DNA from: Pseudomonadota bacterium
Lineage (GTDB): Bacteria; Pseudomonadota; Gammaproteobacteria; Burkholderiales; JABEVD01
DNA length: 64,000 nucleotides
Reading direction: 5' to 3'
Assembly (NCBI GenBank): GCA_021802545.1
Contig: JAJZRS010000015.1
Coordinates: 2,239-66,238 of the forward strand
Below are positions 19,014-38,236 of this stretch, one piece after another; position 1 is the stretch's first letter; the number at the start of each line of letters is the position of its first letter. The position numbers were made by a program, and so were the translations under genes. The notes beneath the pieces are model-generated. The model did not search any database. It was not told the origin of the DNA and saw only the letters and a program-made list of their open reading frames with translations.

Positions 19014-19097
19014 GTCTCACCTATGAAAGTTGGATGATGATGGAATGGGGGCGGCGGCGCCTCATTTCAAGTCCCGCCCCCCCATATTTCAGCCCGA

Positions 19098-20366: not shown

Positions 20367-20389
20367 ACCCCTTCATCATACCCGGCAGA

Positions 20390-21013: not shown

Positions 21014-21014
21014 C

Positions 21015-22307
21015 TCAGTTCCCCATCAATTCGTCAAAAGTAACAGCCTTGTCTTCGACCTTGGCCAGACCCAGCGCCCAGTCCACCACGTTTTCCTCGA
21101 GCGCGAAAGACTCGGCGTCGTTGAGCCTCGAAGGCTCTGCATAATGCCATCTTATCACTTCCTCGGGATGCTCGTAATGCTGCGCGAATTCCTCGATGAC
21201 CGCCCTGATCTGTTCCGGCTTGGCATGCAGCGCGTGGACTTTCACGAGTTCGGCCAGGATGAGGCCGAGATTGACCCTGCGCTTTGCCTGATCTTCGAAC
21301 ATTTCGCGCGGGATCGGCATGTCCTTGGTCTTGATGCCGCGCGCCTCGAGGTCACCCCTCGCCTGGTCGACGAGTCGATGCACTTCCATCTCGACGAGCG
21401 AGCGCGGCAACTCGACCTTGGTCGAATCCAGCAGAGACTGCATCACCTGGTCCTTCAGTCGTCCCTGGATTCTCCTTTTGACTTCCCTTTTCAGGTTGTC
21501 CAAGACCTCTTTGCGCACTTCATCCATGCTGGAAACGCCCAGGCTCTTCGCGAATTCCTCGTCAAATTCGGGGAGCTTCGGCGCCTCTACCCTGTTCAGC
21601 GTAATCTCGAATACCGCTTTTTTCCCGGCCACGTCCTTGCCGTGGTAATCCTTGGGGAAAGTCACTTTCGCCGATTTCGTCTCGCCTGTCTTCATGCCGA
21701 TGATGGCCGCCTCGAAATCCTCCAGCATGCTTCCCTGGCCCAGCAGGACCTGCGTGCCCTTTGCCGAACCGCCTTCGAAGGGCTCCTTGCCTATTTTCCC
21801 TGCAAAGTCGATATCGACCTTGTCGCCAGATTCGGCCGCGCGGTCGACCGGCTCGAAGACGGCGCGCTGCTTGCGCAGCGTTTCCAGCGTCCTGTCGACA
21901 TCGGCATCGCTCACCTCGAAAACCGGGCGCTCGATTTTCGCCTTGGCCATGTCGCCGAGCGTGACCTCTGGATAGACCTCGAACACTGCCCCGTAAACCA
22001 GGCTTTCGCTGCCGGTTTCTTCCTTGTTGGCCTCGAACCTGGGAAAACCGGCCACTTTCAGCGATTTTTCCTTGACTGCACTGACGAAACGGGTTTCCAG
22101 CTCGCTCTCGAGCACTTCCTGCCTGACCTGATCGCCGAACTGCTTGGCCACCACCTTGAGCGGCACCTTCCCTGGGCGAAAACCGTGCAGCTTGACCGTA
22201 TGGGCAAGCCTCTGCAGCCTTTTTTCCACTTCCTTGTTGAACTGCGCAACCGGCACAGTCACATCAATACGCCGCTCCAATGAGCTTGAATTTTCGCTCG
22301 TCTGCAT
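21015..22307 (-). CDS. tig: Trigger factor
   Basis: 430 aa. Ribosome-binding motif [12 protein letters not shown]-like middle domain. Located upstream of clpP. Confidence 0.95.
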
Positions 22308-22628: not shown

Positions 22629-23912
22629 ATGCACAACGAAATCCCCAAGGAAAACGAGCCCGAGATCAAGTCGGAAGACATGGCGGCCAGCCTTTCCGAA
22701 ATCGAGGCCGAATACGTCGCGTCCAGCCTGATCAGAAAATCCCCTGCCGTCCTGCCAGCACAATCCAACGAAGAAGTGCTGCAGCTTCTGGCTCAGCATA
22801 CCGATGTGGTCGGACTGCCTGTCGTGGAAGACAGCAAACCGATCGGCATGATCAACCGCAGCATCTTCATGGACGAAATGGCCAAGCCTTTCAGGCGCGA
22901 ACTGTATTCCAGAAAAAGCTGCATCGCCTTCATGGACAAGCAGCCGCTCGTGGTCGATGGCCGCATGAGCATACAGGAACTGAGCTTCAAGGTCGTCGCA
23001 GCGGGCAACAAGGCCCTCAAGGACGGCTTCATCATCACCGCCCCCTCGGGCGAATATGCAGGCGTTGGGACAGGCGAGGATCTGATGCAGGTGATCGCCA
23101 ACCTCCAGGCCGAAAAGAACAGGCTGGTCATGGAAAGCATCAATTACGCCAGCGTGATCCAAAAATCCTTCCTCAGGTCGGCAAGGCGCGATCTGGAAGC
23201 CTCCCTGCACGACTATTTCATTCACTGGGAGCCGCGCGACAGGGTGGGCGGTGACTATTACTTCTGCAAGAAATTCGACGACGGCTTTTTCATCGCACTG
23301 ATCGACTGCACCGGCCACGGCGTCCCTGGCGCCTTCATGACCCTGATCATGGCCGCCTTCCTCGACCATCTCCTGCAAAACGACAACCGCATGGATCCTG
23401 CAGGCGCGCTGTCCGCAATGAACAGGAAGGTCAAGATAGCGCTCGGCCAGATCGAGGAAATGAACATCTCCCATCTCGGCGAAGCCGAGCATTCGGACGA
23501 CGGCATGGATACGGCCTTTTGCTGGGTGAATCCGTCGGCCGGAAAAATGGTTTATGCCGGGGCGAAAACCCCGCTTTTCCTGCTGCCCAAAGGCAGCGAT
23601 GAAATCACTGTCGTCGACGGCGACAAGAAGGGCGTCGGCTACGTGGAAACGCCCATGGATTATGCCTGGACAAACAAGGAAGTTGCCCTACCGGAAGGAA
23701 TCAGCGTCTATCTCACCACGGACGGCATCATCGACCAGATCGGCGGTCCGAAAAGCATCGCCTTCGGCAAGAAGCGCTTCTCGAAACTGATTCTCGAGCA
23801 TTGCAGCCTGCCCATGATGGAGCAGAAGGGCCGCATCATGCAGGCCTTCTACGAATACCAGGGCAGCCAGCGGCGACGCGACGACGTCAGTTTTCTTGGA
23901 TTCAGGATATAA
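22629..23912 (+). CDS. CBS-pair sensor fused to PP2C/SpoIIE-type Ser/Thr phosphatase (SiaA-like role)
   Basis: 427 aa. The N-terminal half has two CBS-like units (VVGLPVVEDSKPIGMINRSIF... and PLVVDGRMSIQELS...GFIITAPSGEYAGVGTGEDLM). The C-terminal half has PPM metal-ligand motifs: RVGGDYYF, IDCTGHGVPGAF, DDGMDTAF, LTTDGIIDQ and RRDDVSFLGF. Confidence 0.8.
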   Translation: MHNEIPKENEPEIKSEDMAASLSEIEAEYVASSLIRKSPAVLPAQSNEEVLQLLAQHTDVVGLPVVEDSKPIGMINRSIFMDEMAKPFRRELYSRKSCIAFMDKQPLVVDGRMSIQELSFKVVAAGNKALKDGFIITAPSGEYAGVGTGEDLMQVIANLQAEKNRLVMESINYASVIQKSFLRSARRDLEASLHDYFIHWEPRDRVGGDYYFCKKFDDGFFIALIDCTGHGVPGAFMTLIMAAFLDHLLQNDNRMDPAGALSAMNRKVKIALGQIEEMNISHLGEAEHSDDGMDTAFCWVNPSAGKMVYAGAKTPLFLLPKGSDEITVVDGDKKGVGYVETPMDYAWTNKEVALPEGISVYLTTDGIIDQIGGPKSIAFGKKRFSKLILEHCSLPMMEQKGRIMQAFYEYQGSQRRRDDVSFLGFRI

Positions 23913-23921
23913 GGGCTCGCC

Positions 23922-24473
23922 ATGCAACTCGACATGTTCAATGCATTTTGCAATTCGGCCGATTTCAGCGGCGTGATTTTCTACTACAACGGCGAACTCT
24001 CCCAGAACGTCGTCGCCACGATGGGTGACGCCTTGAAAGGCAGACTCGAGGAAGAAGGCAATCTCGGCCCCAAGGCGAGAAAGCTGTTTTCGAGTTACAT
24101 CGAGATGGTCCAGAACGCCCTGCACTATTCCCCGCTCGCGCCGAATGGCGGAAAGCTCGGGGCCGTTGCCGTGGGCAAGCGAAAGGAAGACAAGTATTTC
24201 ATCGTGTGCGGGAACCTGGTCGAGAAGAAGCACATGGAGCGCATTCGGGAAAAAATCGAGCCTTTGCGGAGCATGACGCTCGAGGAAATAAAGAAGGCAT
24301 ACAGGGAGCAGCTGAAGAACGACAGGCATGCAGAGGAAGATGATATCAGCAAGGGGGCGGGGCTCGGTTTCCTGACCGTAGCGCGCGATGCATCCGAGCC
24401 GATCGAATATGCGTTCGATGAGGTACCCGGGCATAGCGAACTCGCCCGTTTTTATCTTAAAGCAATCGTGTAA
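23922..24473 (+). CDS. SiaB-family small protein kinase (GHKL-like, anti-sigma-kinase-like fold)
   Basis: 183 aa. Contains VIFYYNGELSQNVVATMGDAL...SSYIEMVQNALHYS...GAGLGFLTVARDA. Size, motif pattern and position between a PP2C gene and a DUF1987 gene match P. aeruginosa SiaB by recall. Confidence 0.7.
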   Translation: MQLDMFNAFCNSADFSGVIFYYNGELSQNVVATMGDALKGRLEEEGNLGPKARKLFSSYIEMVQNALHYSPLAPNGGKLGAVAVGKRKEDKYFIVCGNLVEKKHMERIREKIEPLRSMTLEEIKKAYREQLKNDRHAEEDDISKGAGLGFLTVARDASEPIEYAFDEVPGHSELARFYLKAIV

Positions 24474-24483
24474 GGAGATTCTC

Positions 24484-24873
24484 ATGAACGACATCTATCT
24501 GGCCAAAACCACACAATCCCCCGAAGTGGACTTCCGTTTCAAGGAGCATGTGCTTTCCATGACAGGAGAAGCCTACCCCGAGAACGCAAATGATTTTTTC
24601 CACCCTATCCTCAATGCGCTGGAAAATTATCTCGCATCCAATGACGGCAAGGACATCGAGTTCAACTTCCGCCTGACCTACTTCAACAGCGCCGCGACGA
24701 AGATGCTGTTCAACATGTTCGACCTGCTCAACGAATCGGCCGCTTCAAGCAACCGGATCGTTCTGAACTGGTACCATGACGAAGAGGATGACACCATCCT
24801 CGAATTCGGCGAAGGCGTCCAGGATGACTTCCAGGCACTGGAATTCAGGGCCATCGCCACAACTTCGGCCTGA
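24484..24873 (+). CDS. SiaC-family (DUF1987) regulatory phosphoprotein
   Basis: 129 aa starting at ATG 24484 behind RBS AAGGAG; the track ORF begins earlier, at 24388. Sequence: MNDIYLAKTTQSPEVDFRFKEHVLSMTGEAYPENANDFFHPILNALENYL...FRLTYFNSAATKMLFNMFDLL...LNWYHDEEDDTILEFGE. This is DUF1987-like. Confidence 0.75.
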   Translation: MNDIYLAKTTQSPEVDFRFKEHVLSMTGEAYPENANDFFHPILNALENYLASNDGKDIEFNFRLTYFNSAATKMLFNMFDLLNESAASSNRIVLNWYHDEEDDTILEFGEGVQDDFQALEFRAIATTSA

Positions 24874-25255: not shown

Positions 25256-27712
25256 TTGAACAAACCATCCCGGAAGTCGCCCTTGCCTCATGAGAAACTC
25301 GGGCTGGACGCCCCTGCGATCCGTCAGTCGCTCAACAACCGCCTCACCTATACCGTCGGAAAGGATCCGCTGACCGCAACCGAGCGAGACTGGTTCCACG
25401 CGCTCGCCTATGCGACGAGAGACCGGCTGGCCGAGCGCTGGATGGACACCATGCGCAGCTATTACGACAGGGATGCCAAGCGGATCTACTACTTTTCCCT
25501 CGAATTTCTCATCGGACGCATGCTGGTCAACAGCCTGAGCAATGTCGGATTCTACGATGAATGCAAAAAAGCCCTGGAAGAACTCGGGCTCGATTTTGAC
25601 GAACTGAAAGAAATCGAGCATGACGCGGCGCTGGGAAACGGCGGTCTGGGAAGGCTTGCAGCATGCTTTCTGGATTCCATGGCCACCCTCGGCATTCCAG
25701 GCTACGGATGCGGCATACGTTATGAATACGGCATGTTCAACCAGCGCATCGAAAACGGCTGCCAGATAGAACACCCGGACAATTGGCTGCGCTACGGCAA
25801 CCCATGGGAATTCCCTCGCCCCGAAGTGCTCTATCCGATCAAATTCTTCGGTCACGTCGCAGAATATGTCGACGAAAGCGGACACCTCTGCCATCAATGG
25901 ATGGATACAGAGGAAATCATGGCGATGGCCTACGATACGCCCGTGCCGGGCTATGGCAACCATGTCGTGAACAACATGCGCCTGTGGTCGGCCAAGGCCA
26001 CGAGGGACTTCAATCTGCGGTATTTCAACGAAGGCAATTACATCAAGGCGGTCGAGGAAAAGGACAGCTCGGAAAATCTCTCCAAGGTGCTCTACCCTGA
26101 CGACACGACCTTGATGGGCCGGGAGCTCCGCCTCAAGCAGCAATATTTCTTCGTCAGCGCATCGCTTCAGGACATTCTCCGCCGCTTTCTCAAGCATCAT
26201 GACGATCTCAAGGCTTTTCCCGAAAAGGTTGCCATCCAGCTCAACGACACCCATCCTTCCATCGCCATTGCCGAACTGATGCGCCTCTTGATGGATACCC
26301 ATCAGCTCGGCTGGGACCAATCCTGGGAAATCAGCTGCAATACGTTCTCGTATACCAACCACACCCTGATGCCGGAAGCATTGGAGACATGGCCGATCTC
26401 CCTGTTCGAGCGGGTTCTTCCCCGGCACATGCAGATCATCTACGAGATCAACCGCCGTTTCCTCAGGGATGTCATGCACCGTCATCCGGGCGACAGCGCG
26501 CTGCTGAAGCGCATGTCGATCATCTCTGAAGAAGGCGAACGGCGCATCCGCATGGCGCATCTTGCCATCGTGGGCAGCCACAAGGTGAACGGCGTGGCGC
26601 GCATCCACACCGAACTGATGAAGAGCACGATCTTCTCCGACTTCGACCGCTTTTTCCCGGGCAAGATCGTCAACATGACGAACGGCGTGACACCCAGGCT
26701 GTGGCTCAAGCAGGCCAACCCGCATCTGTCCCAGCTGATTTCCTCGCACATCGGCAACGGCTGGCCCGCGAACCTCGGCGAACTCGAAAAACTGGCCCCT
26801 CTTGCCGAGAACGCTGCATTCCGCCAGGCGTTCCGAGAAGTCAAGCGCGCCAGCAAGGCCAGGCTCGCCTCCCTCGTCAAGGCGCGGCTTGGCATTGAAA
26901 TCGACACTGATTCCCTGTTCGACGTCCAGATCAAGCGCATTCACGAATACAAGCGCCAGCTGCTCAATTTGCTGCACGTCGTCACGCGCTACAACCGCAT
27001 CCGCAAGAACCCATCGGCCGACATCGTGCCGAGGACAGTGATTTTCGGCGGCAAGGCGGCCCCCGGCTACGCCATGGCCAAGCTCATCATCAGGCTGATC
27101 AACGACGTGGCCGACATCGTCAACAACGACCCTGCAGTGAACGGGCGCCTGAAAGTCGTCTTCATCCCCAATTACGACGTGTCCACCGCGCTCGACATCA
27201 TTCCTGCGGCCGACCTGTCTGAGCAGATATCGACCGCGGGCACGGAAGCCTCAGGCACCGGGAACATGAAGCTCGCCATGAACGGCGCATTGACCATCGG
27301 CACGCTGGATGGCGCCAATATCGAAATCAGGGAAGAAGTCGGCGAAGACAACATTTTCATCTTCGGGCTCACCGCGGAAGAAGTCGCTGAGAGCTACGAC
27401 AAAAACCATCCCGTGCATCCGGAAATGCAGGAAGCGCTCCACATGATCGGCTCTGGCTACTTTTCCCCGACGGATCCGTATTGCTACCTGCCTGTCGTCA
27501 GCGCGCTCACCCAGGGCGACCATTACCGGCTGACCGCGGATTATCCCGCCTACATCAGCTGCCAGGAAAGGGTGGACGAAGCCTATCGGGACAGGGATGC
27601 ATGGTCGAGGAAGGCCATCCTCAATATCGCGAAAATGGGGAAATTCTCAAGCGATCGGACCATAGACCAGTACGCAGGTGAGATCTGGAAGGTCGAACCG
27701 GTATCAAGATGA
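25256..27712 (+). CDS. glgP: Glycogen/maltodextrin phosphorylase
   Basis: Hallmarks: EFLIGRML, GNGGLGRLAACFLDSMATLG, and the PLP-lysine region TAGTEASGTGNMKLAMNGALTIGTLDGANIEI. There is no in-frame ATG after the upstream gene. TTG 25256 gives an N-terminus about the length of E. coli GlgP. The track start at 25064 would overlap the upstream gene with an Arg-rich nonsense extension. Confidence 0.9.
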   Translation: MNKPSRKSPLPHEKLGLDAPAIRQSLNNRLTYTVGKDPLTATERDWFHALAYATRDRLAERWMDTMRSYYDRDAKRIYYFSLEFLIGRMLVNSLSNVGFYDECKKALEELGLDFDELKEIEHDAALGNGGLGRLAACFLDSMATLGIPGYGCGIRYEYGMFNQRIENGCQIEHPDNWLRYGNPWEFPRPEVLYPIKFFGHVAEYVDESGHLCHQWMDTEEIMAMAYDTPVPGYGNHVVNNMRLWSAKATRDFNLRYFNEGNYIKAVEEKDSSENLSKVLYPDDTTLMGRELRLKQQYFFVSASLQDILRRFLKHHDDLKAFPEKVAIQLNDTHPSIAIAELMRLLMDTHQLGWDQSWEISCNTFSYTNHTLMPEALETWPISLFERVLPRHMQIIYEINRRFLRDVMHRHPGDSALLKRMSIISEEGERRIRMAHLAIVGSHKVNGVARIHTELMKSTIFSDFDRFFPGKIVNMTNGVTPRLWLKQANPHLSQLISSHIGNGWPANLGELEKLAPLAENAAFRQAFREVKRASKARLASLVKARLGIEIDTDSLFDVQIKRIHEYKRQLLNLLHVVTRYNRIRKNPSADIVPRTVIFGGKAAPGYAMAKLIIRLINDVADIVNNDPAVNGRLKVVFIPNYDVSTALDIIPAADLSEQISTAGTEASGTGNMKLAMNGALTIGTLDGANIEIREEVGEDNIFIFGLTAEEVAESYDKNHPVHPEMQEALHMIGSGYFSPTDPYCYLPVVSALTQGDHYRLTADYPAYISCQERVDEAYRDRDAWSRKAILNIAKMGKFSSDRTIDQYAGEIWKVEPVSR

Positions 27713-30094
27713 TCTGGTTTTCTTTTGAGAGAAGGTTCTCCTGATCTCCGAGAATTTGGACAGGCGAGCCAGCGCGTTACCGTTGATGCAGCCGGCAGGG
27801 AATCGGCCCGTCGCGTCGGCCGTGCCTGCGTCAAGCCCGGTCAAGATGCTGATCGCCTCGTCGAAATGGCTCACGGCATAGATACTGAATCTTCCCGCGC
27901 GCGCCGCCTCGACCACTTCCTTTTTCAGCATCAAATGCTTCACGTTGGCCCCTGGAATGACGACGCCCTGCGCACCATTGAGCCCCCTTCTTGCGCAGAT
28001 ATCGAAAAATCCTTCGATTTTCTCGTTGACGCCGCCGATGGCTTGCACCTGTCCGAACTGATTCACCGACCCCGTCACCGCCATGGACTGCAGGATCGGG
28101 GCGTCCGCCAGCTTCGAAACCAGCGCGCAAAGCTCCGCAAGCGATGCGCTGTCGCCTTCGATGAGCCCGTAGGATTGTTCGAAAGCGAGGCTCGCTGAAA
28201 GGGAGAGCGGACGGTCGTGCGCATAGCGCGAAGCAAGGAATGAGGACAGGATCAGCACACCCTTGGAATGGATGGCGCCGCTCAGTTCGGCTTCCCGCTC
28301 GATGTTGACGAGTTCCCCTTCCCCCACCCTCACCGTCGCCGTGATTCTCGTCGGCAGCGAGAAAGCATAGTCGGCAAGCTGGATCACCGAAAGCCCGTTC
28401 ACCTGCCCCACCACTGCGCCTTCCGTATCGATCATGATCGTGCCGCGCAATATTTCCTCATGAAGGCGGAACTTCAGCCTGTCCGAGCGCTCGTTCCTCG
28501 CGCGAATGGCCTCCTCGATATCGTTCAGCCCGACGATTTTCCCGCCCTCGTTTCTCGCCTGGAAATCGGCTTCTCGCAAGAGGTCGGCAAGCGCCTTGAT
28601 ATGCGTCGTCAGCCTTTCAGAGTCCGATGCAAGGCGTGACGCATATTCGATCGCGCGCGCAACGGCTTGCCTGTCGAAAGGCAGCATCTCCTCCTTCCTG
28701 GCCAGGGTCGCGATCAGCCTCGCATAAAGCAGGACATTCTCGTCGCTCCGCTCCATCTGATCTTCGAAATCGGCTGGTATCTTGAACAGCTTGCCGAACT
28801 CCGGATCGTATTCCATGAGCATGTAATAGAGCAGCCGGTCGCCGAATAGGACAACCTTGACATCGAGCGGGATGGGTTCAGGTTCAAGAGACACGGTGCT
28901 GACGAGGCTCAGGGCCTGCCCCAGTGATTCCATCCTGATCTCGCTGGACGCCAGCGCACGCTTCAGCCCTTCCCAAGCATAAGGCTGCATCAATACCTTG
29001 CGCGCATCGAGCAGCAGATAACCGCCGTTCGCCCGGTGCAGCGCGCCCGCCTTGATCAGCGTGAAATTGGTCACGAGCGCGCCCAGCTGGGCGACATGCT
29101 CGACCCTGCCGACGAGATTGCCGTAGGAGGGATTTTCCTCGAACAGGATGGGCGCCCCGGCCGATACATAATGGTTGCCCAGCACGTTCACCTGATAGCG
29201 CTCCAGGGAAGGCCGTTCGCCGAGCCCCAAGAGCGCTGACGTCTTGTCCTCCCCCTTCAAAAAATCCCTTGCGTTTTCGACGACATCCCGCTCCACCGCA
29301 TCGAGATAGGCGAGCACGGCGCTGTCCGAATAGGCCGCTCTCACCTCGTCGATCAGGTGAAGCACCGCGACCTTCGTGGTTTCCCTGTAAAGCGCCCTGA
29401 CCTTTTCCCTGTTCTCCTTCATCCATTTGGGAATCTGGCGGATGATTTTCTGCAATGCCTCCTGGAAGATTGAAATCGCCTTCCCAAAGCTTTCCTGCTT
29501 CTTCTGGGGAAGCTTCTCGTAATCGGCAGGAGAAATCACGACATGGTTGGCCATGGGGGCGAAAGCGAATCCCTCGGGCGTCCTGAGCAGGGCCACGTCC
29601 TTTTCTTCTGCACGCTTTCCGAGTTCGTCGAAAGCGTCGTCCTGGCGCCTGCCGAGCTCCTCCTGGATCGCCTCGAGCTTGGCCCTGTACTCGTCGCTTT
29701 CCAGGGCGGCAGGAATCGCGACATGCAGCTCTTCCACGAGATGCGCCATGTCGGCTGCAAGCTTGACGCCCATTCCGTTCCGAAGCTTCAGGGCAATCGG
29801 CTTGTGCGGCTCAGAAAAATTGTTGACATAACACCAGTCGAAAGGCTCCGGCTCCGTTTTCGCCTTTCCCTCGAGATACTGCATGACCATGCTGCGCTTG
29901 CCCAATCCAGGCGGGCCGAGCACGAACAGATTGTAGCCTTCACGCCCGATGCCCGCGCCGAACCTGATTGCGGAAAGCGCACGCGGCTGGCCGATGAATT
30001 CGGTCAATTCTTCGAGGCCGTCTGTCGTCTTGAAATCGAAAATATCCGGATCGCATGCCGTGTTCAACTTGCAGGGGTCGAGCGGTGAGGTCAT
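27704..30094 (-). CDS. Lon-like (LonC/COG1067-type) AAA+ protease with inserted coiled-coil domain
   Basis: Starts at MTSPLDPCKLN (ATG 30094, ATGA overlap with the upstream stop). Contains FIGQPRALSAIRFG and the P-loop GPPGLGKRS, then a long helical insertion. The C-terminal S16 protease domain has GDSASLAELCALVS (Ser) and GGVNEKIEGFF (Lys). Confidence 0.75.
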   Translation of the reverse strand: MTSPLDPCKLNTACDPDIFDFKTTDGLEELTEFIGQPRALSAIRFGAGIGREGYNLFVLGPPGLGKRSMVMQYLEGKAKTEPEPFDWCYVNNFSEPHKPIALKLRNGMGVKLAADMAHLVEELHVAIPAALESDEYRAKLEAIQEELGRRQDDAFDELGKRAEEKDVALLRTPEGFAFAPMANHVVISPADYEKLPQKKQESFGKAISIFQEALQKIIRQIPKWMKENREKVRALYRETTKVAVLHLIDEVRAAYSDSAVLAYLDAVERDVVENARDFLKGEDKTSALLGLGERPSLERYQVNVLGNHYVSAGAPILFEENPSYGNLVGRVEHVAQLGALVTNFTLIKAGALHRANGGYLLLDARKVLMQPYAWEGLKRALASSEIRMESLGQALSLVSTVSLEPEPIPLDVKVVLFGDRLLYYMLMEYDPEFGKLFKIPADFEDQMERSDENVLLYARLIATLARKEEMLPFDRQAVARAIEYASRLASDSERLTTHIKALADLLREADFQARNEGGKIVGLNDIEEAIRARNERSDRLKFRLHEEILRGTIMIDTEGAVVGQVNGLSVIQLADYAFSLPTRITATVRVGEGELVNIEREAELSGAIHSKGVLILSSFLASRYAHDRPLSLSASLAFEQSYGLIEGDSASLAELCALVSKLADAPILQSMAVTGSVNQFGQVQAIGGVNEKIEGFFDICARRGLNGAQGVVIPGANVKHLMLKKEVVEAARAGRFSIYAVSHFDEAISILTGLDAGTADATGRFPAGCINGNALARLSKFSEIRRTFSQKKTRSS

Positions 30095-32874
30095 TCTCTG
30101 CCTTTCTTTTGTCCTAATACAAAGGATAGACCCGGCTCGCCGCAATGGGAAAGAATCCGGCCCCGGGCTTCATCCCGAAGACGGATTGCGGATTCCCAAC
30201 CCGCCCCTTTCGGGAAAATGGGCGCCCCTATCCAAACATTCAATTCGCTTCTTCTCGGAAACCAGCCGCCGTCTCGCAAGGCAGAGCGCGTGCCGCGCAA
30301 GGCGACCGGAACGACGGGAATGCCTGCATTGCTTGACGCAAGGAAGGCGCCCATGCGGAATTCCGCAAGTCCGGGCATCCTGGTGAAGGTCCCCTCCGGA
30401 AAAAAAATCATGGACCGCCCCGATCTTGCCATGTCCTCGAGGCGCTCGATATCCGGCCCGATTTCCCCGCGCGCGACGAATGCCGATCCGACATGATCGA
30501 GATAGAGCCTAGAGATGAAGGAATCCTGCAGTTCCTTCTTGGCGATGAAGGAAAAGAAACCGCCCGGCGCGAGAGAACCGTGCAGGGCTGCGGCCATCAC
30601 GATGCCGTCCGCATAGCTCGCGTGGTTGGCGACGAGGATGGCGGGATCGCCTTGCAGGTTTTGCATTCCCTCGACATTCAACCGGTATCCGCAAAGGGTC
30701 AGGAAAATCCGCGCGAAGCATCTGCTCGATGCCCAGCTCCATGCCCTGCTTTTCGATGACACGGCGAAAAACCAGGCGAAGGGAGCGATCGCCCAGAAGA
30801 CGATCCAGACATGGGCCGCGTAAAGAATGCCGCCCATGGCCCTGGCAAGCCTCCTCGCCTGAGGAAGAATCCCTTCTGCGAGAAAGTCGAGATAATGCAT
30901 CCGCTTCCTCTTCAAGCCGCCGAGATAAAGCGATCGAGAAGCTGCCCGCCTGATCTTGCCGCTGGAAGTCTTGAGGACGGTATGGGGAGGGACGAGCAAT
31001 ATTTCGTCCGGCGGCTCGCCGAGCACGTCGACGACGGCATCGTTGACCAAACCCTTCAGCCTCTCCAGCGCTTCCCTTTGCTTGGTTTCAGCCATCACGA
31101 CAAGCTGCTCCGTTCCGCCCCTGGGCACCCCGAAAACAGCAACGCAACCCCGCCTGATGCCGGGCAAATTGCCCACCGCTTCCTCGGCCTCATAGGGTTG
31201 GATATTTCTGCCTGCCCGGATGATGAGGTCTTTCGCACGGCCCGTGACGTAAATCTCGCCGTCGGCGATATAGGCAAAGTCGCCCGAATCGAGCCATGCA
31301 TCGTGGAAAAGCTTTCCCGTCTCCTCCGGATTCCTGAAGTAGCCGCTTGTCGCAGAGGGCCCCTTGAACTCGAGCCTCCCTTCCCTCCTCTCGCCAACTT
31401 CGCGGCCGGCCGCATCGACAATCCTGATCTCGTGCCCGGGAAGCGGCAGGCCGCAGGAGACGAATGCGACCCTATCCACCCCGCCCTGAATCGCCCGGCC
31501 TGTCCTGGCGAACAGGTCGCGATCCACCTCATCCACTTTCGGACCTCTGCCCGGAGGAGGGAAAGCCAGTCCGACAGAGGATTCCGCAAGCCCGTAGACG
31601 GGCGAAATTGCCGACGGATTCAGGCCGTATTTGGAGAATTTCTCCGAAAAACCACGGATCACCTCCGGACTGACAGGCTCTGCCCCGTTGAAGGCCATGC
31701 GCAGGCTGGACAGATCGATTCCCTGCATGTCCTCCCCTTCGATCTTGGAAAGACAGAGCGCATAGCCGAAATTCGGGGATGCGGTCAGCGTGCCTCTGTG
31801 TCTCGAGATGCAGGAGAGCCACCTTGCAGGTCTGGACAGGAAGGATAGGGGTGACATGACAACATATCTGCAGGCGTGATAAAGGCTGCCGAGCCAGGCG
31901 CCGATCAGCCCCATGTCGTGATAAAGCGGCAGCCAGCTCACGAAAACGTCATTCGAACCGACCTCGGCTGCCGTCCCCATGGCGCGGATGTTCGCCAGCA
32001 GATTGGCGTGATTCAGCATTACGCCCTTCGGGTTTCCGGTGCTGCCCGAGGTATATTGCAACAGGGCGATATCCTCCCTTTCCAGGGCAGGCACAACCTC
32101 GATGTCTTGAGTCGATAGATCTCGGGGCAGAACGATTCCCCGCAAAGATTCGACCTGAAGCCCGAGCAGCTTCGCAAGCTTGGCCGCTTCGTCGAAAGTG
32201 ACCAACATGACCGCTCCTGCATTCGACAATATCCCGGCATGCCGCTTCAGGTGGTCAGCCATCTGGGAAAGTCTGAAAGGAGGATAGATCGGAACGGGAA
32301 TGCAGCCTGCCATCAGGATGCCGAAAAAGCTGAAGAAATAATCCGGCCCGGTGGGAAGCATAAGTGCGACGGCCTCCCCCTTCTGCACACCGCGCATGAT
32401 CAGCCCGCCAGCCACCCTTTTCGCGCGCTTCTCGAGTTCGCCGTAGCTGATCGGCACCGTTTTCCCGGATTCTTCGAATAGGATGTGGATCCGATCGCGA
32501 TGATTCAGGACATGCCATTCCAGGACTTCGGTCAGGGTCTGCGCATCGGTCGGAAACCCTGAAACCTCGCGCTCGGCTTCAGGCGCTTCGGCGATTTCGT
32601 GTAGCGGCAGTTGCTGCTTCCCGAGCGCTTCCAGGATGTCCCTGAGCGTTTCCGCTTCTCCCAGCAATGCCTCGGGAAGTCGGACATCGAAGGCGCGCTC
32701 CACCCTCATCATCAATTCGACCCGCGTCAGGCTGTCGAAACCGAGATCGCGTTCGAGCGACATGTCGAGATTCGGCTGCCCGACCTTCGATGCGCGCGCT
32801 TCCCTTGAGAGCTTCGCCGCGACGCCGAGCAGCTTTTCAGAGACCGTGTCTTGCCATGGATCCGGGCTTTTCAT
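30091..32874 (-). CDS. Tri-domain fusion: acyl carrier domain, acyl-AMP ligase (FAAL/acyl-ACP synthetase-like), TM segment, lysophospholipid/glycerol-3-P acyltransferase (PlsC family)
   Basis: 927 aa. PP-binding motif LGFDSLTRVELMMRVE. Adenylation motifs LQYTSGSTGNPKGV, SGDFAY and LKTSSGKIRR. Hydrophobic helix ILYAAHVWIVFWAIAPFAWFFAV. Acyltransferase motifs NHASYADG (HX4D), FFPEGTFTR and IPVVPVAL. Confidence 0.8.
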   Translation of the reverse strand: MKSPDPWQDTVSEKLLGVAAKLSREARASKVGQPNLDMSLERDLGFDSLTRVELMMRVERAFDVRLPEALLGEAETLRDILEALGKQQLPLHEIAEAPEAEREVSGFPTDAQTLTEVLEWHVLNHRDRIHILFEESGKTVPISYGELEKRAKRVAGGLIMRGVQKGEAVALMLPTGPDYFFSFFGILMAGCIPVPIYPPFRLSQMADHLKRHAGILSNAGAVMLVTFDEAAKLAKLLGLQVESLRGIVLPRDLSTQDIEVVPALEREDIALLQYTSGSTGNPKGVMLNHANLLANIRAMGTAAEVGSNDVFVSWLPLYHDMGLIGAWLGSLYHACRYVVMSPLSFLSRPARWLSCISRHRGTLTASPNFGYALCLSKIEGEDMQGIDLSSLRMAFNGAEPVSPEVIRGFSEKFSKYGLNPSAISPVYGLAESSVGLAFPPPGRGPKVDEVDRDLFARTGRAIQGGVDRVAFVSCGLPLPGHEIRIVDAAGREVGERREGRLEFKGPSATSGYFRNPEETGKLFHDAWLDSGDFAYIADGEIYVTGRAKDLIIRAGRNIQPYEAEEAVGNLPGIRRGCVAVFGVPRGGTEQLVVMAETKQREALERLKGLVNDAVVDVLGEPPDEILLVPPHTVLKTSSGKIRRAASRSLYLGGLKRKRMHYLDFLAEGILPQARRLARAMGGILYAAHVWIVFWAIAPFAWFFAVSSKSRAWSWASSRCFARIFLTLCGYRLNVEGMQNLQGDPAILVANHASYADGIVMAAALHGSLAPGGFFSFIAKKELQDSFISRLYLDHVGSAFVARGEIGPDIERLEDMARSGRSMIFFPEGTFTRMPGLAEFRMGAFLASSNAGIPVVPVALRGTRSALRDGGWFPRRSELNVWIGAPIFPKGAGWESAIRLRDEARGRILSHCGEPGLSFVLGQKKGRE

Positions 32875-35528
32875 GAATGACCCGCTTGTTTTCGTATAGT
32901 CTCAATTTTGCGTACGATCCACTTGCGCGTTTCCTCGAGGAAAAGAAGCCCGGCTGCAAAGGGGATCAGCAAAAGCCAGATGTTCATGGAAAGAGGCGCC
33001 GTCCCGAAAACGGCATTGCCGAGCGGCGTATAGTCGATGAAGAACAGCAGCGCGATTTCGAAAAGCGCACCGAGCAGGATCAGCGGATTGCTAGAGAGGC
33101 CCGTATGAAAAACGGACTTATGCCTGCTTCGGCAGAGGAAGACGTTCACGATCTGCATCGCAATGATGGCGCTCAGGGTTGCCGTCGTCGCTTCGCGGTA
33201 GACAGGGTCGTTCATGGACAGTATTTGCCCGTAATGCCATCCAGATTCTCTGAGCACGAAGAAAAAGCAGTACATTGCAGAAGCCGCTTCGATCGCGCCC
33301 AGAAAAAGATAGGCGCGCAGGGCGAGCGGCCAGTCGAAGAGGCGTCGAGATGGCGGCCTGGGCGGTCTTTCCATCGCGCTCGGATCCGCTTTTTCGACGC
33401 CGAGTCCGAGCGCGGTCAGGGTATCCGTCCCCATGTCGACAGACAGGATCTGGATTGGCGTCAGCGGCAAGGGAATGCTGAAAAGGGAAAAGGCGAGATA
33501 GGGGACCAGTTCGGGAACGTTGTGCGCCAGAATGTAGGTGAGGAACTTGCCGATGTTGTCGAAGACGGCCCGCCCTTCCTCGACCGCATCGACGATGGCG
33601 GCGAAATTGTCGTCCAGCAGCACCATGTCTGCCGCCGACTTGGCGACATCGGTGCCTGATATCCCCATGGCGATGCCGATATGGGCGCACCTCAATGCAG
33701 GCGCATCGTTCACGCCGTCTCCCGTGACCGCCACGACATGCTTCTTCCGCTTCAGCGCGTCGACGATGCGCATTTTCTGCGTCGCATCTGCCCTGGCGAA
33801 AATGATCTCAGGTTCGTCCAGCGCAAGACGCAACTGAGCATCGTCCAAACCGCGCAGCGCGTCCCCGGAGATCACCGTCGGGTTATCCGACCTGGCCAGC
33901 CCGATCTCCCTTGCGATTGCCAGGGCAGTCGCCGGATGGTCCCCGGTCACCATGATGACCCGGATGCCTGCCTGCCTGCATTTTTCGATCGCAGCAGGCA
34001 CTTCAATCCTCGGCGGATCTTCCAGGCCTGCCAGGCCTGCAAAGACCATATCCTCCTCGAGCGGCTTGTTTTTCCAGTCCCGATCCAAAGTGCGGAAAGC
34101 CAGGGCGATGACCCGCAATCCCTTCCCGGCCATGGCTTCCTGCGCCGATCTTATTGCGTCATGATGCGCGTCAAGCAGCGGCCCTTCCCCGTCTTCACAC
34201 AACATCCTGGCGCATAACGGCACGACCTTCTCGGGCGCACCCTTGCAATAAAGCTGCGGCCCTTCAGGGTCACCGTGCACCGTGGCCAGGCGCATACGCT
34301 CGTCATCGAAGGGAATCTCGAAAAGCCTTTCGGATCCGGGAAAAAACGCGTCCTTGGCCATCGAAGCGAGGGCGATTTCCATCGGATCTCCGAAGGAAAC
34401 CTGCCCATCCCTCAGGTCGTTGCAGAATCTCGCCACTTTCAGGAAAGGCGCAGGAAGATCGGCAGAAGGCTTTGAAAACTTTCCTTCGACAAACACCTCT
34501 TTCACCACCATCCTGTTCTGCGTGAGCGTGCCCGTCTTGTCCGTGCAGATGACCGTGGTTGAGCCCAGCGCCTCGACGGACGTCAGATGCCTGATCAGGA
34601 CCTTTTTTCCCGCCATGCGCTGCGTGGCGAGCACCAGGGCGAGCGTCAGCGTGGGAAGCAGTCCTTCGGGCACCATGGCGACGATGATGCCGATGGCGAA
34701 GATGAAATCCTTCCAGAAAGGGATGCCGATCGCCTGTCCGCCCAGAAAGAATGCGATGCCGATAAAGACGGCAATCATTCCGATCATGCGGCTGAGATGG
34801 GTGATCTCGCGCCGCAATGGAGACGTTCCGCGCTCATCCGACTGGGCGAGATGGGCGATTCTTCCGAATTCGGTGCGCATCCCCGTGGCGAAGACGACCG
34901 CCCTGGCCTGGCCGGAAACCACCGATGTGCCGGCAAGCAGGATGTTTCTCGCCTTTGTCCATTCATCGAGGCTCGATGGGGCGGCGTCCCGGTACAGCGG
35001 AACCGCTTCGCCGGTGACGGTGGCGTTGCTCACCTTGACGCCGAATCCCTCTATCAGGCGGCAATCCGCCGGAACATGGTCCCCTTCCTGAAGCAGAACG
35101 ATATCCCCGACGACCAGGCTGGCCAGCGGGATCCGTGCATGCTTTCCTTCCCTCATCACGACACTCTGATTCGGCAGCAGCCCGGAAAGCGCTGCAAGGG
35201 TCCGTTCCGCACGGTATTCCTGCCAGAAGGAAAATGCGCCGCTGATCAGGATCACGGCAACGATGGCGAATGCGAGCTTGCCCATTCCCTGGCCGGGAGC
35301 GCTCCATTGCGCAAAAAGCGCAAGGGCTGCCGCAATCCAGAGGATCAGGGAAAAAAGATGGGTGAACTCCTTGAGAAAGCGGAGCCAGAGCGGCTCCCCG
35401 GCCGGCGCTTCAAGCCTGTTCTCTCCGTATTCGGAAAGCCTGCGGGAAGCCTCCTCCCAGGCAAGCCCGTCTTCGCTGCTCCTGAGGCTTGCCAGGACGT
35501 CATGGACTGTCAGTCTGTGGATGTGCAT
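32871..35528 (-). CDS. Cation-translocating P-type ATPase (P2-like)
   Basis: 885 aa. Cation_ATPase_N start (LSEYGENRLEAP), TGEAVP, TM4 motif VPEGLLPT, phosphorylation site ICTDKTGTLTQN, and MVTGDHP and GDGVNDAPAL. Its stop overlaps the downstream start (ATGA). Confidence 0.9.
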   Translation of the reverse strand: MHIHRLTVHDVLASLRSSEDGLAWEEASRRLSEYGENRLEAPAGEPLWLRFLKEFTHLFSLILWIAAALALFAQWSAPGQGMGKLAFAIVAVILISGAFSFWQEYRAERTLAALSGLLPNQSVVMREGKHARIPLASLVVGDIVLLQEGDHVPADCRLIEGFGVKVSNATVTGEAVPLYRDAAPSSLDEWTKARNILLAGTSVVSGQARAVVFATGMRTEFGRIAHLAQSDERGTSPLRREITHLSRMIGMIAVFIGIAFFLGGQAIGIPFWKDFIFAIGIIVAMVPEGLLPTLTLALVLATQRMAGKKVLIRHLTSVEALGSTTVICTDKTGTLTQNRMVVKEVFVEGKFSKPSADLPAPFLKVARFCNDLRDGQVSFGDPMEIALASMAKDAFFPGSERLFEIPFDDERMRLATVHGDPEGPQLYCKGAPEKVVPLCARMLCEDGEGPLLDAHHDAIRSAQEAMAGKGLRVIALAFRTLDRDWKNKPLEEDMVFAGLAGLEDPPRIEVPAAIEKCRQAGIRVIMVTGDHPATALAIAREIGLARSDNPTVISGDALRGLDDAQLRLALDEPEIIFARADATQKMRIVDALKRKKHVVAVTGDGVNDAPALRCAHIGIAMGISGTDVAKSAADMVLLDDNFAAIVDAVEEGRAVFDNIGKFLTYILAHNVPELVPYLAFSLFSIPLPLTPIQILSVDMGTDTLTALGLGVEKADPSAMERPPRPPSRRLFDWPLALRAYLFLGAIEAASAMYCFFFVLRESGWHYGQILSMNDPVYREATTATLSAIIAMQIVNVFLCRSRHKSVFHTGLSSNPLILLGALFEIALLFFIDYTPLGNAVFGTAPLSMNIWLLLIPFAAGLLFLEETRKWIVRKIETIRKQAGHS

Positions 35529-35582
35529 CGCGTCGGATCATGGCTCGGCTACTCCTTTTATAGCCTACCCGACGGGAAAACT

Positions 35583-36470
35583 TCAGGCGGGGAACACGCC
35601 TGTGGAAAGATAGCGGTCGCCCCTGTCGCAGACGATCGACACGATGACGGCATTCTCAAGCGTCTTCGAGAGCTTCAATGCGGCGGCCATGGCGCCCCCC
35701 GAGGAAATGCCAGCGAAAATCCCTTCCTCCGCGGCAAGCCGTCTTGTCGTCTCCTCGGCTTCAAGCTGGGAGACGAGCATGATCTCGTCGACGAGCTTCG
35801 CATCGTAAACCTTGGGAAGATAGGCTTCAGGCCACTTCCTGATTCCCGGAATCTGGGCGCCTTCGTCAGGCTGGACGCCGATGATGCGTATCGAAGGATC
35901 CGTTTCCTTGAAGAATCTCGCGCAGCCCATGATCGTTCCGGTCGTGCCCATGCTGCTCACGAAGTGCGTGATCTTGCCGCCGGTATCCCGCCATATCTCG
36001 GGCGCAGTGCCTTCGTAATGGGCGATTGGATTGTCAGGATTGGAAAACTGGTCGAGTATCTTGCCCCTGCCTTCTGCCTGCATCCTGTTGGCCAGATCGA
36101 TTGCCGCTTCCATGCCGCCGTCCTTCGGCGTCAGGACGATTTCAGCACCGAAAGCGCGCATGACCTGGCGGCGCTCGACGCTCATGTGCTCGGGCATCAC
36201 CAGCACCATCTTGAATCCGCGCACGGCGGCGGCCATGGCCAGGGCGATGCCCGTGTTGCCGCTCGTCGCCTCGATCAGGGTGTCCCCTTGCCGTATCTCC
36301 CCTCTTTTTTCCGCGCGGGTGATCATGGAAAGCGCAGGCCTGTCCTTCACCGACCCCGCAGGATTGTTCCCTTCTAGCTTGGCCAGGATGACGTTCGAAG
36401 TCGCCCCGGGCAGCCTTCTCAGCCGAACCAGAGGCGTATTGCCGACATAATCTTCGATGTACTTGTACAT
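35583..36470 (-). CDS. cysM: Cysteine synthase B (O-acetylserine sulfhydrylase)
   Basis: 295 aa from ATG 36470. MYKYIEDYVGNTPLVRLRRL...NPAGSVKDRPALSMI (PLP Lys)...TSGNTGIALA. The upstream part of the 417-aa track ORF is Arg-rich nonsense. Confidence 0.9.
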   Translation of the reverse strand: MYKYIEDYVGNTPLVRLRRLPGATSNVILAKLEGNNPAGSVKDRPALSMITRAEKRGEIRQGDTLIEATSGNTGIALAMAAAVRGFKMVLVMPEHMSVERRQVMRAFGAEIVLTPKDGGMEAAIDLANRMQAEGRGKILDQFSNPDNPIAHYEGTAPEIWRDTGGKITHFVSSMGTTGTIMGCARFFKETDPSIRIIGVQPDEGAQIPGIRKWPEAYLPKVYDAKLVDEIMLVSQLEAEETTRRLAAEEGIFAGISSGGAMAAALKLSKTLENAVIVSIVCDRGDRYLSTGVFPA

Positions 36471-36483
36471 GGTGGACCCCGTT

Positions 36484-37143
36484 TCAGGCATTATCGCATA
36501 TGCGAATGAACCATGCCGCAATGTCTTCAATCTCTTCCTGGCAGACGGCATGGGCCATGTCGTAGCGATGCCATTCGACATCGTGCCCGAGACGCTCCAG
36601 CGCATTTTTCGAAGCAAGCCCGGAGGCGACGGGAATGATTTCGTCCATGATGCCGTGCGCCATGAAAACCGGCGTTGCCGAATTCGCAGGGTGGGCTTCC
36701 CTTGCAACCGTATCCGCAAGGGGAAGGTAGGTCGAAAGCGCCAGGATTCCGGCGAGCTTCTCGGGATGAAGCAGGCCGGAATAGAGCGCGGTCGCACCGC
36801 CCTGGGAAAAACCCGCCAGGAAGATTCGATCCGCATCGATCCCCCTTCCCTTCTCCCTTTCGATGAGATCGCATATGCGCATCCTGGATTCCAGTATGCC
36901 TTCCCTGTCCTCTCCGGACTTCAGGTCGAGCGCATAGATGTCGTACCAGGCGCGCATGGCATAGCCGCCGTTCAGGGTGACTGGGCGGACCGGCGCATGG
37001 GGAAACACGAAGCGCATGTCCGGCAAATTCAGGGCTTTCGCGACGGGAACGAAATCGTTCCCGTCGGCCCCCAGCCCGTGCAGCCAGATGACGGAATAAA
37101 CCGGATTGGAAGAAGTTTCGAACTCGATGGCTGGCAGTGTCAT
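36484..37143 (-). CDS. Carboxylesterase/phospholipase family alpha/beta hydrolase
   Basis: 219 aa from ATG 37143. VIWLHGLGADGNDF, nucleophile elbow GFSQGG, and late HGIMDEIIP...H. This is the phospholipase/carboxylesterase family pattern. Confidence 0.8.
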   Translation of the reverse strand: MTLPAIEFETSSNPVYSVIWLHGLGADGNDFVPVAKALNLPDMRFVFPHAPVRPVTLNGGYAMRAWYDIYALDLKSGEDREGILESRMRICDLIEREKGRGIDADRIFLAGFSQGGATALYSGLLHPEKLAGILALSTYLPLADTVAREAHPANSATPVFMAHGIMDEIIPVASGLASKNALERLGHDVEWHRYDMAHAVCQEEIEDIAAWFIRICDNA

Positions 37144-37195
37144 AAGTTTCCGGAAGCAACTATAATGGTCTTGTTTGGCAATTATGGGAGGAAGA

Positions 37196-38236
37196 ATGGA
37201 TCGCCGTGAATTCATCAAGCTTGCCGCATCCAGCAGCGCGCTCTTTGCTCTGCCTGCCTGGGGCTATTACGACGAAATCGCCTCCTGGAGAACCTTTCGC
37301 CTGAACTATCACGTCTCGCTCCCTGAAGCGGGAAAAAACGCGAAACTGTGGCTTCCCGTTCCCGACAGCAACGATACCTTATACCAGCGCAACATGGGAA
37401 GCGTCTGGAGCGACGGACTTTCCCTGGCCAACCTTTACGATCCGCCCAAGAACCTCGCAGCGACCTTCTTCGGGGAATGGCGAGGAATGGGATCGAGACA
37501 AGTCACCGTCGGCACGATGATCAAAACGGCCGAGCGGCGCGTCTCCCTTGAAGGCATCAAGCATCATGGCGGAAGCATCCCGCATGAATTGAAGCGATAT
37601 CTCGAGCCGAGCGGCAGCCATTCCAGCAAGATTGCGCTTGAGGTGACGAAGCATGCATCTTCCCCCTTGGACAAGGCGCATGCCATCTACGAATGGGTCG
37701 TCGACAATACCCATTACGATGCTTCCGTTGGGGACTGCGGCAAGGGGGATGCGGAGGCCATGCTTGAATACGGAAACATGGGCGGAAAGAGCCTGGACAT
37801 CGCCTCCCTTTTCGTCAGCCTTTGCCGGGCATCCGGCATTCCAGCCAGAGGCGCGTACGGCATCCTGCTGGATGAAGCCAGCGACGGAAAAATCAAGACG
37901 AGCCACCATGCGCGCGCAGAATTCTATCTTTCCGGAACAGGATGGTTTCCCGTCGATCCGGCCGAAATCCAGCGCGTCATTCTGGAAGAGAAGCGGAGCT
38001 TCGCTGACGCGAAGGTCGCTGCCCTCAAGAAGGATCTCTTCGGCCACTGGAAGCTCAACTGGATCGGCCTCAATCACGAACGCGACGTTCTGCTGCCTTT
38101 CATGGAAGCCAGGATTCCGCGCTTCATTTACCCTTATGCGCAATACGGCGGCCATCTGCTTGAAGGCTCGGATGCCGGCAGCTTCTACGCCATCGAAGTC
38201 AACGAGATGGTCGGGACAGGCATTCATTTCTCCTGA
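37196..38236 (+). CDS. Tat-exported transglutaminase-fold protein with Ser at the catalytic Cys position
   Basis: Start ATG 37196 behind GGGAGGAAGA. Twin-arginine signal MDRREFIKLAASSSALFALPAWG. The core GGKSLDIASLFVSLCRASGIPARGAYG aligns with the G-x-C-x-x-F-A...GIPAR transglutaminase core but has Ser for Cys. His (HHARAEFYL) and Asp (GWFPVDP) are retained. Confidence 0.75.
   Translation: MDRREFIKLAASSSALFALPAWGYYDEIASWRTFRLNYHVSLPEAGKNAKLWLPVPDSNDTLYQRNMGSVWSDGLSLANLYDPPKNLAATFFGEWRGMGSRQVTVGTMIKTAERRVSLEGIKHHGGSIPHELKRYLEPSGSHSSKIALEVTKHASSPLDKAHAIYEWVVDNTHYDASVGDCGKGDAEAMLEYGNMGGKSLDIASLFVSLCRASGIPARGAYGILLDEASDGKIKTSHHARAEFYLSGTGWFPVDPAEIQRVILEEKRSFADAKVAALKKDLFGHWKLNWIGLNHERDVLLPFMEARIPRFIYPYAQYGGHLLEGSDAGSFYAIEVNEMVGTGIHFS

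Follow-up and report, generated by a model that had tools for sequence, protein, structure and literature searches.

The lysophospholipid repair system of Escherichia coli pairs the transporter LplT with Aas, in which an adenylate-forming domain and a PlsC-type HX4D acyltransferase are joined in one membrane-associated polypeptide. Fusions of a fatty acyl-adenylate ligase (FAAL) with a lysophospholipid acyltransferase (LPLAT) have been noted in two surveys, in eLife in 2021 (PMC8460268) and in Protein Sci in 2026 (PMC12820801), as a 'unique domain organisation' or a FAAL clade in an LPLAT/AGPAT context; they are treated there as unusual and uncharacterised, and neither survey gives a function, an acceptor or a gene context. 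LonC is represented by MtaLonC of Meiothermus taiwanensis, for which degenerate Walker A and B motifs, a CX3GLX(G/E) insertion and a Ser-Lys dyad were defined (PMC3391209); in the passages of that paper covered by our search, gene context and physiological role do not occur ('operon' and 'neighbor' are absent). The low-oxygen locus lxa of Burkholderia cenocepacia combines, in the parts of its description that we consulted, universal stress proteins (USPs), alpha-crystallin (Hsp20), PEBP, a ribonucleotide reductase (RNR), a cation ATPase and a Zn protease, and was compared by its authors with the DosR regulon of Mycobacterium tuberculosis (PMC3721108). Here we analyse a locus from a Burkholderiales bacterium in which relatives of such proteins are encoded side by side. 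In a window of 64,000 nucleotides (nt; the whole stretch analysed, positions 2,239 to 66,238 of contig JAJZRS010000015.1), the open reading frame (ORF) list and Pfam identify three consecutive genes, whose junctions were read in the sequence:

32871 to 35528, minus strand: P-type ATPase (ATPase1, a P2C-like cation pump), 885 amino acids (aa), ATG start
30091 to 32874, minus strand: fusion of acyl carrier protein (ACP), FAAL and LPLAT domains, 927 aa, ATG start
27704 to 30094, minus strand: LonC-type ATP-independent Lon-like protease, 796 aa
32871 to 32874, minus strand: ATGA start/stop overlap between ATPase1 and the fusion
30091 to 30094, minus strand: ATGA start/stop overlap between the fusion and LonC

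Independent gene calls on the source contig reproduced the three lengths. The start of the pump at 35528 is fixed because an in-frame TGA lies four codons upstream. The LonC frame extends upstream to a TTG at 30145 (27704 to 30145), while the ATG at 30094, which gives the 796-aa protein, is favoured by the independent gene calls and by homologue alignments. An initial annotation, made from the letters of the stretch, had described these three genes with their two overlaps as a P-type ATPase, an ACP-acyl-AMP ligase-acyltransferase and a LonC-like protease, and both the layout and the domain identities are borne out. It had also concluded that the genes must be co-expressed. The four-nucleotide ATGA overlap is the commonest overlap between co-directional bacterial genes, and in related loci (numbered with an L below) it also occurs at unrelated pairs, between DnaK and DnaJ in L006 and between DnaJ and protein-isoaspartate methyltransferase (PCMT) in L093. 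For these reasons, two consecutive overlaps are statistically nothing unusual; they indicate tight packing and probable co-transcription, and to this extent the conclusion is sound. The three-gene string is real and probably forms one transcript, but its genes stand together as a peculiarity of this lineage and do not make up a conserved machine. As had been supposed, the combination is absent as a described unit from the literature searched. In our reading, which we consider an even call, the three genes were drawn as independent effectors from a dispersed pool of growth-arrest and low-oxygen stress genes and joined into one operon in this lineage. Most likely, each of the three products acts on its own.

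The evidence against a conserved unit begins in the clade of the window itself. An ENA metagenome contig has the same sequence as the window, and apart from this contig the trio was found just in one 89% relative (L005). There, a TAA stop and a 100-nt spacer replace the overlap between ATPase1 and the fusion, and the junction of the fusion and LonC is TAATG, a 1-nt overlap. Sister loci, which are relatives with fusion or LonC proteins 64-75% identical, have in common the backbone ATPase2-comEC-transglutaminase-esterase-cysM. In all relatives examined cysM precedes a slot of variable content, with five different contents among related genomes. In the sister loci this slot holds the following genes:

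L003: fusion, then glgP; no pump and no LonC
L090: fusion, PrsT, LonC and exopolysaccharide (EPS) genes; no pump
L091 and L092: PrsT, LonC and EPS genes; no fusion and no pump
L006: DnaK-like protein, DnaJ, fusion, PrsT, LonC and EPS genes; no pump

Since sister genomes on the same backbone fill the slot after cysM differently, the trio is a local arrangement of recent date in a slot of changing content. In the four closest sister metagenome-assembled genomes (MAGs) LonC directly follows PrsT, the XrtA/PEP-CTERM TPR protein (TIGR02917, 889 bits), and the pair heads an EPS locus with polysaccharide deacetylase, Orn/DAP decarboxylase, Asn synthase and glycosyltransferases:

L006, 12737 to 17977: PrsT-LonC pair
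L090, 7208 to 12388: PrsT-LonC pair
L091, 7176 to 12388: PrsT-LonC pair
L092, 7212 to 12379: PrsT-LonC pair

For the wider comparison we used a fusion-centred set, the best 80 loci of at least 598 species genomes with about 1.1 Mb of flank, and a LonC-centred set of 80 metagenome loci. Around the fusion, LonC was present within 10 kb in 2/80 loci (Pseudolabrys, Usitatibacter) and an ATPase1-like pump also in two (Malikia and an actinobacterial MAG). Around LonC, the fusion occurred in three of the 80 loci (L134, L155, L169) and an ATPase1-like pump in two (L114 and, partially, L095). All three genes together were found in 0 of the 160 independent loci outside the window lineage. The initial annotation had proposed an envelope or lipid-repair module of the three proteins and had named adjacency in this genome alone as the outcome that speaks against it; because the trio is adjacent in one lineage only, with sister genomes differing, the module reading fails.

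Pairwise, the same families meet more often than expected by chance. In Poisson tests, which are rough, with expectations that are upper bounds under a null of uniform gene placement in a 4-Mb genome, the fusion lies near LonC in three cases against at most 0.20 expected (P = 0.001), and a protein with ribosome-hibernation factor and cold-shock domains (HPF-CSD) is enriched near the fusion (P = 2e-5) and near LonC (P = 2e-7). This HPF-CSD protein, of about 190 aa with an S30AE and a cold-shock domain, was seen near both LonC and the fusion (L155 1288-1863, L016, L027, L036, L043, L045, L071, L127, L134, L138, L142, L157, L172), a recurrence far above rough chance expectation. Fusion-centred loci hold HPF-CSD (6), USP (5), RNR (3), PEBP (2) and PolX (2); DnaK-like proteins, DnaJ and PrsT were found near the fusion in none of the 80 genome loci. 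The dominant partner of LonC is a gene of about 280 aa for a tandem USP, directly downstream on the same strand and often overlapping, in 47/86 loci by clustering (median gap 24 nt) and in 37/80 by tblastn; examples among loci L094 to L173 are L111 11278-12120 and L114 2530-3372. The LonC of the window has no such partner. Other recurrent LonC neighbours are HPF(S30AE)+CSD proteins, Hsp20, DnaK-like Hsp70, DnaJ, PCMT, RtcB-archease and GroEL, and Asn synthase lies near LonC also in L168, L170 and L171. A link of LonC with USPs was not found in the literature searched.

Several replicons carry these families in denser islands. In Ferrigenium kumadai (L093 8048-20606, AP019536) seven genes on one strand encode a DnaK-like protein, LonC, DnaJ, PCMT, a SpeE-like protein, a glutaredoxin (Grx)-like protein and an ATPase 57% identical to ATPase1, while the fusion gene lies elsewhere, near a gene of the major facilitator superfamily (MFS) with a ceramidase gene in between. 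The spermine-synthase-like protein of this string has 800 aa and the glutaredoxin-domain protein 410 aa. LonC sits between a second DnaK and its DnaJ there and likewise in L095, L096 and L113. L155 holds the fusion, SpeE-like protein, PCMT, LonC, DnaK-like protein and DnaJ within 17 kb, and a Cupriavidus plasmid holds the fusion, USP, FtsH, nicotinate phosphoribosyltransferase, LonC, Hsp20 and alanine dehydrogenase (Ald) within about 26 kb. On Sinorhizobium fredii pSF45436d, BON proteins, FtsH, USP, Hsp20, a truncated fusion, PolX, HPF, hemerythrin and a Crp/Fnr regulator occur together with the best plasmid match to ATPase1 (53% identity).

These islands resemble lxa and DosR: the families listed in the excerpts for those systems (USPs, Hsp20, PEBP, class II RNR, a cation-transporting P-type ATPase and an ATP-dependent Zn protease) surround homologues of the trio elsewhere. 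Two differences are apparent. In the parts of the lxa paper searched, 'acyltransferase' and 'AMP-binding' are absent, and the single protease in the Table 4 excerpt is the ATP-dependent Zn protease, with neither LonC nor the fusion seen (PMC3721108). Moreover, the lxa-like clustering with USP, Hsp20 and Crp/Fnr holds for homologues elsewhere only, and it is by analogy with them that a stress role is suggested for the window operon. The common theme of the trio would be a gene pool with USP, HPF-CSD, Hsp20, a second DnaK/DnaJ, PCMT, FtsH and Crp/Fnr regulators, which appears to have been repeatedly shuffled into islands in Proteobacteria. Whereas the analysis shows how the genes are laid out, that domains and motifs are intact, that synteny is not conserved and that pairs meet above chance, we infer co-regulation and this stress role, together with the ion specificity of the pump and the acyl acceptor of the fusion discussed below.

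All three products have intact domains. ATPase1 carries the Pfam domains Cation_ATPase_N, E1-E2_ATPase, HAD and Cation_ATPase_C and the motifs DKTGT, PEGLL (PEGL) and GDGVNDAPAL. Its best NCBIfam model is type IIC (IIC_X-K, TIGR01106) at 633 bits, below the curated cutoff of 946, and among solved structures it scores highest against Na,K-ATPase alpha (562 bits), followed by H,K-ATPase alpha (about 540), Listeria LMCA1 (445) and SERCA (396). Subtyping by membrane-site residues, as the initial annotation had suggested, was done by aligning ATPase1 with Na,K-ATPase alpha-3: it has the counterparts of E327, N776, E779, D804, D808 and Q923, so that the cation ligands in transmembrane helices TM4 (PEGLL), TM5 (N-x-x-E) and TM6 (D-x-x-x-D) are common to both. 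In contrast to the eukaryotic Na,K- and H,K-ATPase alpha subunits (P2C), ATPase1 is shorter, has His for Ser775 and Asn for Asp926 of Na site III, and is accompanied by no beta-subunit-like gene in the operon. The most fitting description of ATPase1 is a P2C-like pump that probably takes a monovalent cation. The second, paralogous ATPase that had been pointed out next to comEC is present (ATPase2, 40493 to 42982, overlapping comEC by 11 nt); it is a distant, PMR1/P2A-like paralogue, 31% identical to ATPase1. Every related MAG contig examined keeps the ATPase2-comEC pair (38224-42982), overlapping in the same geometry, which makes this odd pairing more stable than that of pump, fusion and LonC.

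In the fusion, Pfam places PP-binding at residues 34-84, AMP-binding at 119-513 and Acyltransferase (PF01553) at 731-859, with a single hydrophobic stretch (679-707) between ligase and acyltransferase. The DSL serine, YTSGSTGNPKG, NHxSYxDG (HX4D; NHASYADG in the window protein) and FFPEGT do not vary among 12 homologues (56-67% identity), so that the fusion, like Aas, has the catalytic motifs that adenylation and HX4D acyl transfer require. The best solved relative of the adenylation domain is 3pbk, deposited as 'Fatty Acyl-Adenylate Ligase'; FadD23, FadD32 and FadD28, which are deposited as FAALs or FAAL-type loading enzymes, follow among the top solved matches, and the top NCBIfam model is a FAAL model (414 bits, below its cutoff of 600). 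The family occurs in at least 598 species-representative genomes of many phyla. Relative to the FAAL surveys, our analysis adds the N-terminal ACP and the contexts in stress islands and beside MFS genes; a characterised ACP-FAAL-LPLAT protein was not found in the literature searched.

A likeness to lplT-aas had been proposed, and it holds in part. For the middle enzyme the analogy is reasonable in terms of chemistry: the fusion has the same predicted net reaction as Aas, in which a lysolipid is re-esterified with a free fatty acid at the expense of ATP, independently of coenzyme A (CoA) and via an acyl-ACP intermediate. The orthology does not stand. BLASTP against E. coli Aas gives 28% identity over 304 aa in the ligase and 27% over 149 aa in the acyltransferase, the order is ACP-ligase-acyltransferase as opposed to acyltransferase-ligase, and the match to NCBIfam PRK08633 (173 bits) is far from its cutoff of 1221; with local identity of 27-28% and a permuted domain order, the fusion was rejected as an Aas orthologue. 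The fusion differs further in its built-in carrier protein and its probably FAAL-type ligase. LplT was likewise rejected as a partner: the window operon lacks LplT and any other MFS gene, and the MFS proteins next to the fusion elsewhere show ATG22/UMF1-type Pfam matches and no significant similarity to E. coli LplT (E = 0.05). The fusion thus probably works like Aas, yet it is not Aas. Its intact motifs and the precedent of Aas suggest a mechanism in which a free fatty acid would be activated by ATP to acyl-AMP and loaded onto the enzyme's own phosphopantetheine arm; the membrane-associated PlsC-type domain would then pass the acyl group on to an acceptor, a lyso-(phospho)lipid or a related molecule. 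The net result would be a CoA-independent, Aas-like recycling of fatty acids into membrane lipid.

The commonest immediate neighbour of the fusion is an ATG22/UMF1-type MFS transporter (12/85 loci, median gap 162 nt; for instance L008 7697-8986, L009 8469-9761, L020, L076 12797-14140 and L177 8026-9288). The pair is sometimes joined by a second AMP-binding gene, and in Burkholderia sp. JP2-270 the set adjoins glgP, glgA, glgB and malQ. On a plasmid of Cupriavidus sp. USMAHM13 (L174 10129-20091), one strand encodes ACP, the E2, E1-beta and E1-alpha components of a pyruvate dehydrogenase (PDH)-like complex, acetate-CoA ligase, the fusion and a second AMP-binding protein, and a dihydrolipoamide acyltransferase lies near the fusion in 4 genome loci. 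The PDH-like string could be a second, biosynthetic context of the fusion. On Methylobacterium nodulans pMNOD02 (L178 8910-14814), a P-type ATPase annotated as MgtA stands head-to-head with the fusion gene. As this ATPase is only 30-35% identical to the window pump and belongs to a different, MgtA-like subfamily, adjacency of pump and fusion can involve another ATPase subfamily.

The third gene is a true LonC by its motifs. Pfam finds LonC_helical (57 bits, cutoff 24), AAA_32, the LonB lid and Lon_C, and no hydrophobic stretch is present in the protein. Its best solved relative is MtaLonC (4fwd, 300 bits), with which it has in common a Walker A-like GPPGLGKRS lacking Thr/Ser after GK (GPPSLGKHE in MtaLonC), a Walker B-like GGYLLLDA lacking the catalytic Glu (GYLILDA), the LonC-specific CX3GLX(G/E) insertion (CARRGLNG, after the catalytic Lys of NEK), the Ser-Lys dyad formed by the GDSAS serine and the NEK lysine, and the helical insertion of the AAA-like domain (PMC3391209, PMC13069640); the phi-X2-A-phi motif VVEAA aligns to VLEAV. 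The window protein is a proteobacterial member of the family, and its alignment to MtaLonC is strong only over residues 296-754. A protein with these motifs is predicted to lack ATPase activity and to be a dual chaperone-protease, so LonC would hold and degrade unfolded proteins without spending ATP. What the comparison adds to the description of MtaLonC is a gene context, with links to USP, DnaK-DnaJ and PrsT in different lineages.

The genes and sites around the trio are as follows:

25283 to 27712, plus strand: glycogen phosphorylase (glgP), 809-aa gene call, convergent (Pfam Phosphorylase, 1103 bits)
35583 to 36470, minus strand: cysM (cysteine synthase B), co-directional, 54 nt upstream of ATPase1 (NCBIfam CysM, 522 bits, cutoff 413)
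36484 to 37143, minus strand: Abhydrolase_2 gene (phospholipase/carboxylesterase family, here esterase gene), 13 nt upstream of cysM (Pfam PF02230, E = 1e-51)
37181 to 37210, minus strand: the sole sigma-70-like promoter match upstream of the five-gene co-directional string (TTCACG-18-CATAAT, 9/12 matches)

The end of the glycogen phosphorylase gene overlaps the LonC stop by 9 nt and marks the downstream boundary of the unit. Upstream, the transcription unit may comprise five genes and reach through cysM and the esterase gene, because the promoter/terminator scan found no terminator-like site in the 54-nt gap between cysM and ATPase1 and the sole promoter-like match lies 5' of the esterase gene. 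That match is weak, since promoter-like and terminator-like sites are no more numerous across the region than in shuffled sequence; upstream of ATPase1, the minus strand has a single terminator-like site (36681-36669), located within the esterase gene. The esterase gene is kept in relatives with or without the fusion. GC content is uniform at 58-60%, no signs of mobile elements were seen around the three-gene block, and the search for flanking repeats returned just an 11-nt-seeded 71% match (27626 and 35635), consistent with chance. An Rfam scan of 26-44 kb found neither riboswitch nor leader, and boxes of the FNR/Anr type (TTGAT-N4-ATCAA, up to two mismatches) number 26 against 27.6 expected. 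At the pump start (35500-35558) an out-of-frame ATG at 35541 is preceded, at a distance of 10 nt, by a strong Shine-Dalgarno sequence (AAGGAG). This ATG opens a 13-codon ORF that overlaps the start codon of the pump, and the pump's start codon itself lacks an obvious Shine-Dalgarno sequence. As an MgtL-like leader of the pump this small ORF was rejected, and a conserved leader peptide is unlikely, because its stop is lost in the 89% relative. Past glgP follows a partner-switching-like set of SpoIIE/CBS phosphatase, DUF6272 and SiaC (22629-24873), and beyond it the housekeeping cluster tig-clpP-clpX-lon(A) (16596-22307), which places LonC about 9 kb from the canonical LonA.

Several observations weigh against an origin of the trio in a common stress gene pool. 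The operon's immediate neighbours in the window are housekeeping genes (cysM, glgP, tig-clpPX-lon); no USP, Hsp20, HPF or Crp/Fnr gene stands beside it, and no FNR/Anr-type box lies near the candidate promoter regions (35529-35590 and 37147-37260). In absolute numbers the pairs seldom lie together (2-4% of loci), the enrichment of the pump is marginal (P = 0.02-0.1), and the nulls rest on the assumed uniform placement and genome size. The literature searched holds no expression or biochemistry for the three proteins or close homologues. The housekeeping neighbours, the five contents of the slot, the lack of a recognisable regulator, riboswitch or FNR box and the frequency of ATGA overlaps in bacteria would fit a pure accident of genome compaction, in which unrelated genes were rearranged into the cysM-glgP slot with no common regulation or theme. 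We regard such an accident as possible though doubtful, since the same families recur pairwise in unrelated lineages and on plasmids above upper-bound chance, and LonC and the fusion independently have the same rare neighbour families (HPF-CSD, PolX, Hsp20, FtsH). The recurrence could also be taken further than we do, with the trio as core members of an undescribed, dispersed 'growth-arrest maintenance' pool in Proteobacteria, alongside tandem USP, HPF-CSD, Hsp20, a second DnaK/DnaJ, PCMT and FtsH, and the window operon as a compact version acting in concert; the fusion would then return free fatty acids to phospholipid independently of CoA, the pump would maintain ion gradients and LonC would remove damaged proteins at no cost in ATP. 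This proposal is speculative and rather unlikely to be correct.

A dedicated envelope or lipid-repair module, with pump, reacylating enzyme and LonC as one unit akin to LplT-Aas plus a protease, seems quite unlikely. In its favour, translational coupling is suggested by the start/stop overlaps, the fusion is chemically equipped for Aas-like reacylation, and the order of fusion and LonC on one strand is found again in L036, in L169 with one gene separating them, and in L006 and L090 with PrsT in that position. Outside the window lineage, however, the trio is missing from every locus compared, sister genomes freely drop either flank, the ATPase/fusion overlap is gone even in the 89% relative, and the unit would have to do without an LplT-like flippase and a true Aas orthologue. 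A P-type ATPase adjoins the fusion in Malikia and in M. nodulans, but the former pair is separated by a malic enzyme gene on the opposite strand and the latter ATPase (30% identity, MgtA-like) is of another subfamily. Highly improbable, finally, is a remnant of an XrtA/PEP-CTERM exopolysaccharide locus, which would place LonC, and perhaps the fusion, in exosortase-linked envelope biogenesis. The position of LonC between PrsT and the EPS genes in the four closest sister genomes and the Asn synthase near LonC in further loci speak for it; against it, tblastn found neither PrsT nor EPS genes in the window, PrsT occurs in 0/80 of the LonC-centred metagenome loci, and most LonC genes pair with USP instead. 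Independent effectors from a stress gene pool, joined locally, remain our preferred reading.

The locus is a private arrangement of known kinds, namely a P2C-like pump, a LonC and an Aas-like enzyme that carries its own ACP, and as the claimed new three-protein module does not hold, its value as such is limited. More is to be gained from the uncharacterised fusion family and from the linkage of LonC to USP and DnaK. LonC has a clear and apparently unreported genomic signature, with a tandem USP downstream or a second DnaK/DnaJ set, and ribosome-hibernation and protein-repair genes nearby. The ACP-FAAL-LPLAT family, as widespread as it is, offers a plausible self-contained, CoA-independent route by which free fatty acids would return to membrane lipid. 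Fusion, LonC and pump all occur in lxa-like stress islands on Cupriavidus and Sinorhizobium plasmids, and if the shared stress role is true, oxygen limitation and stationary phase would be the conditions under which to seek the function of all three.

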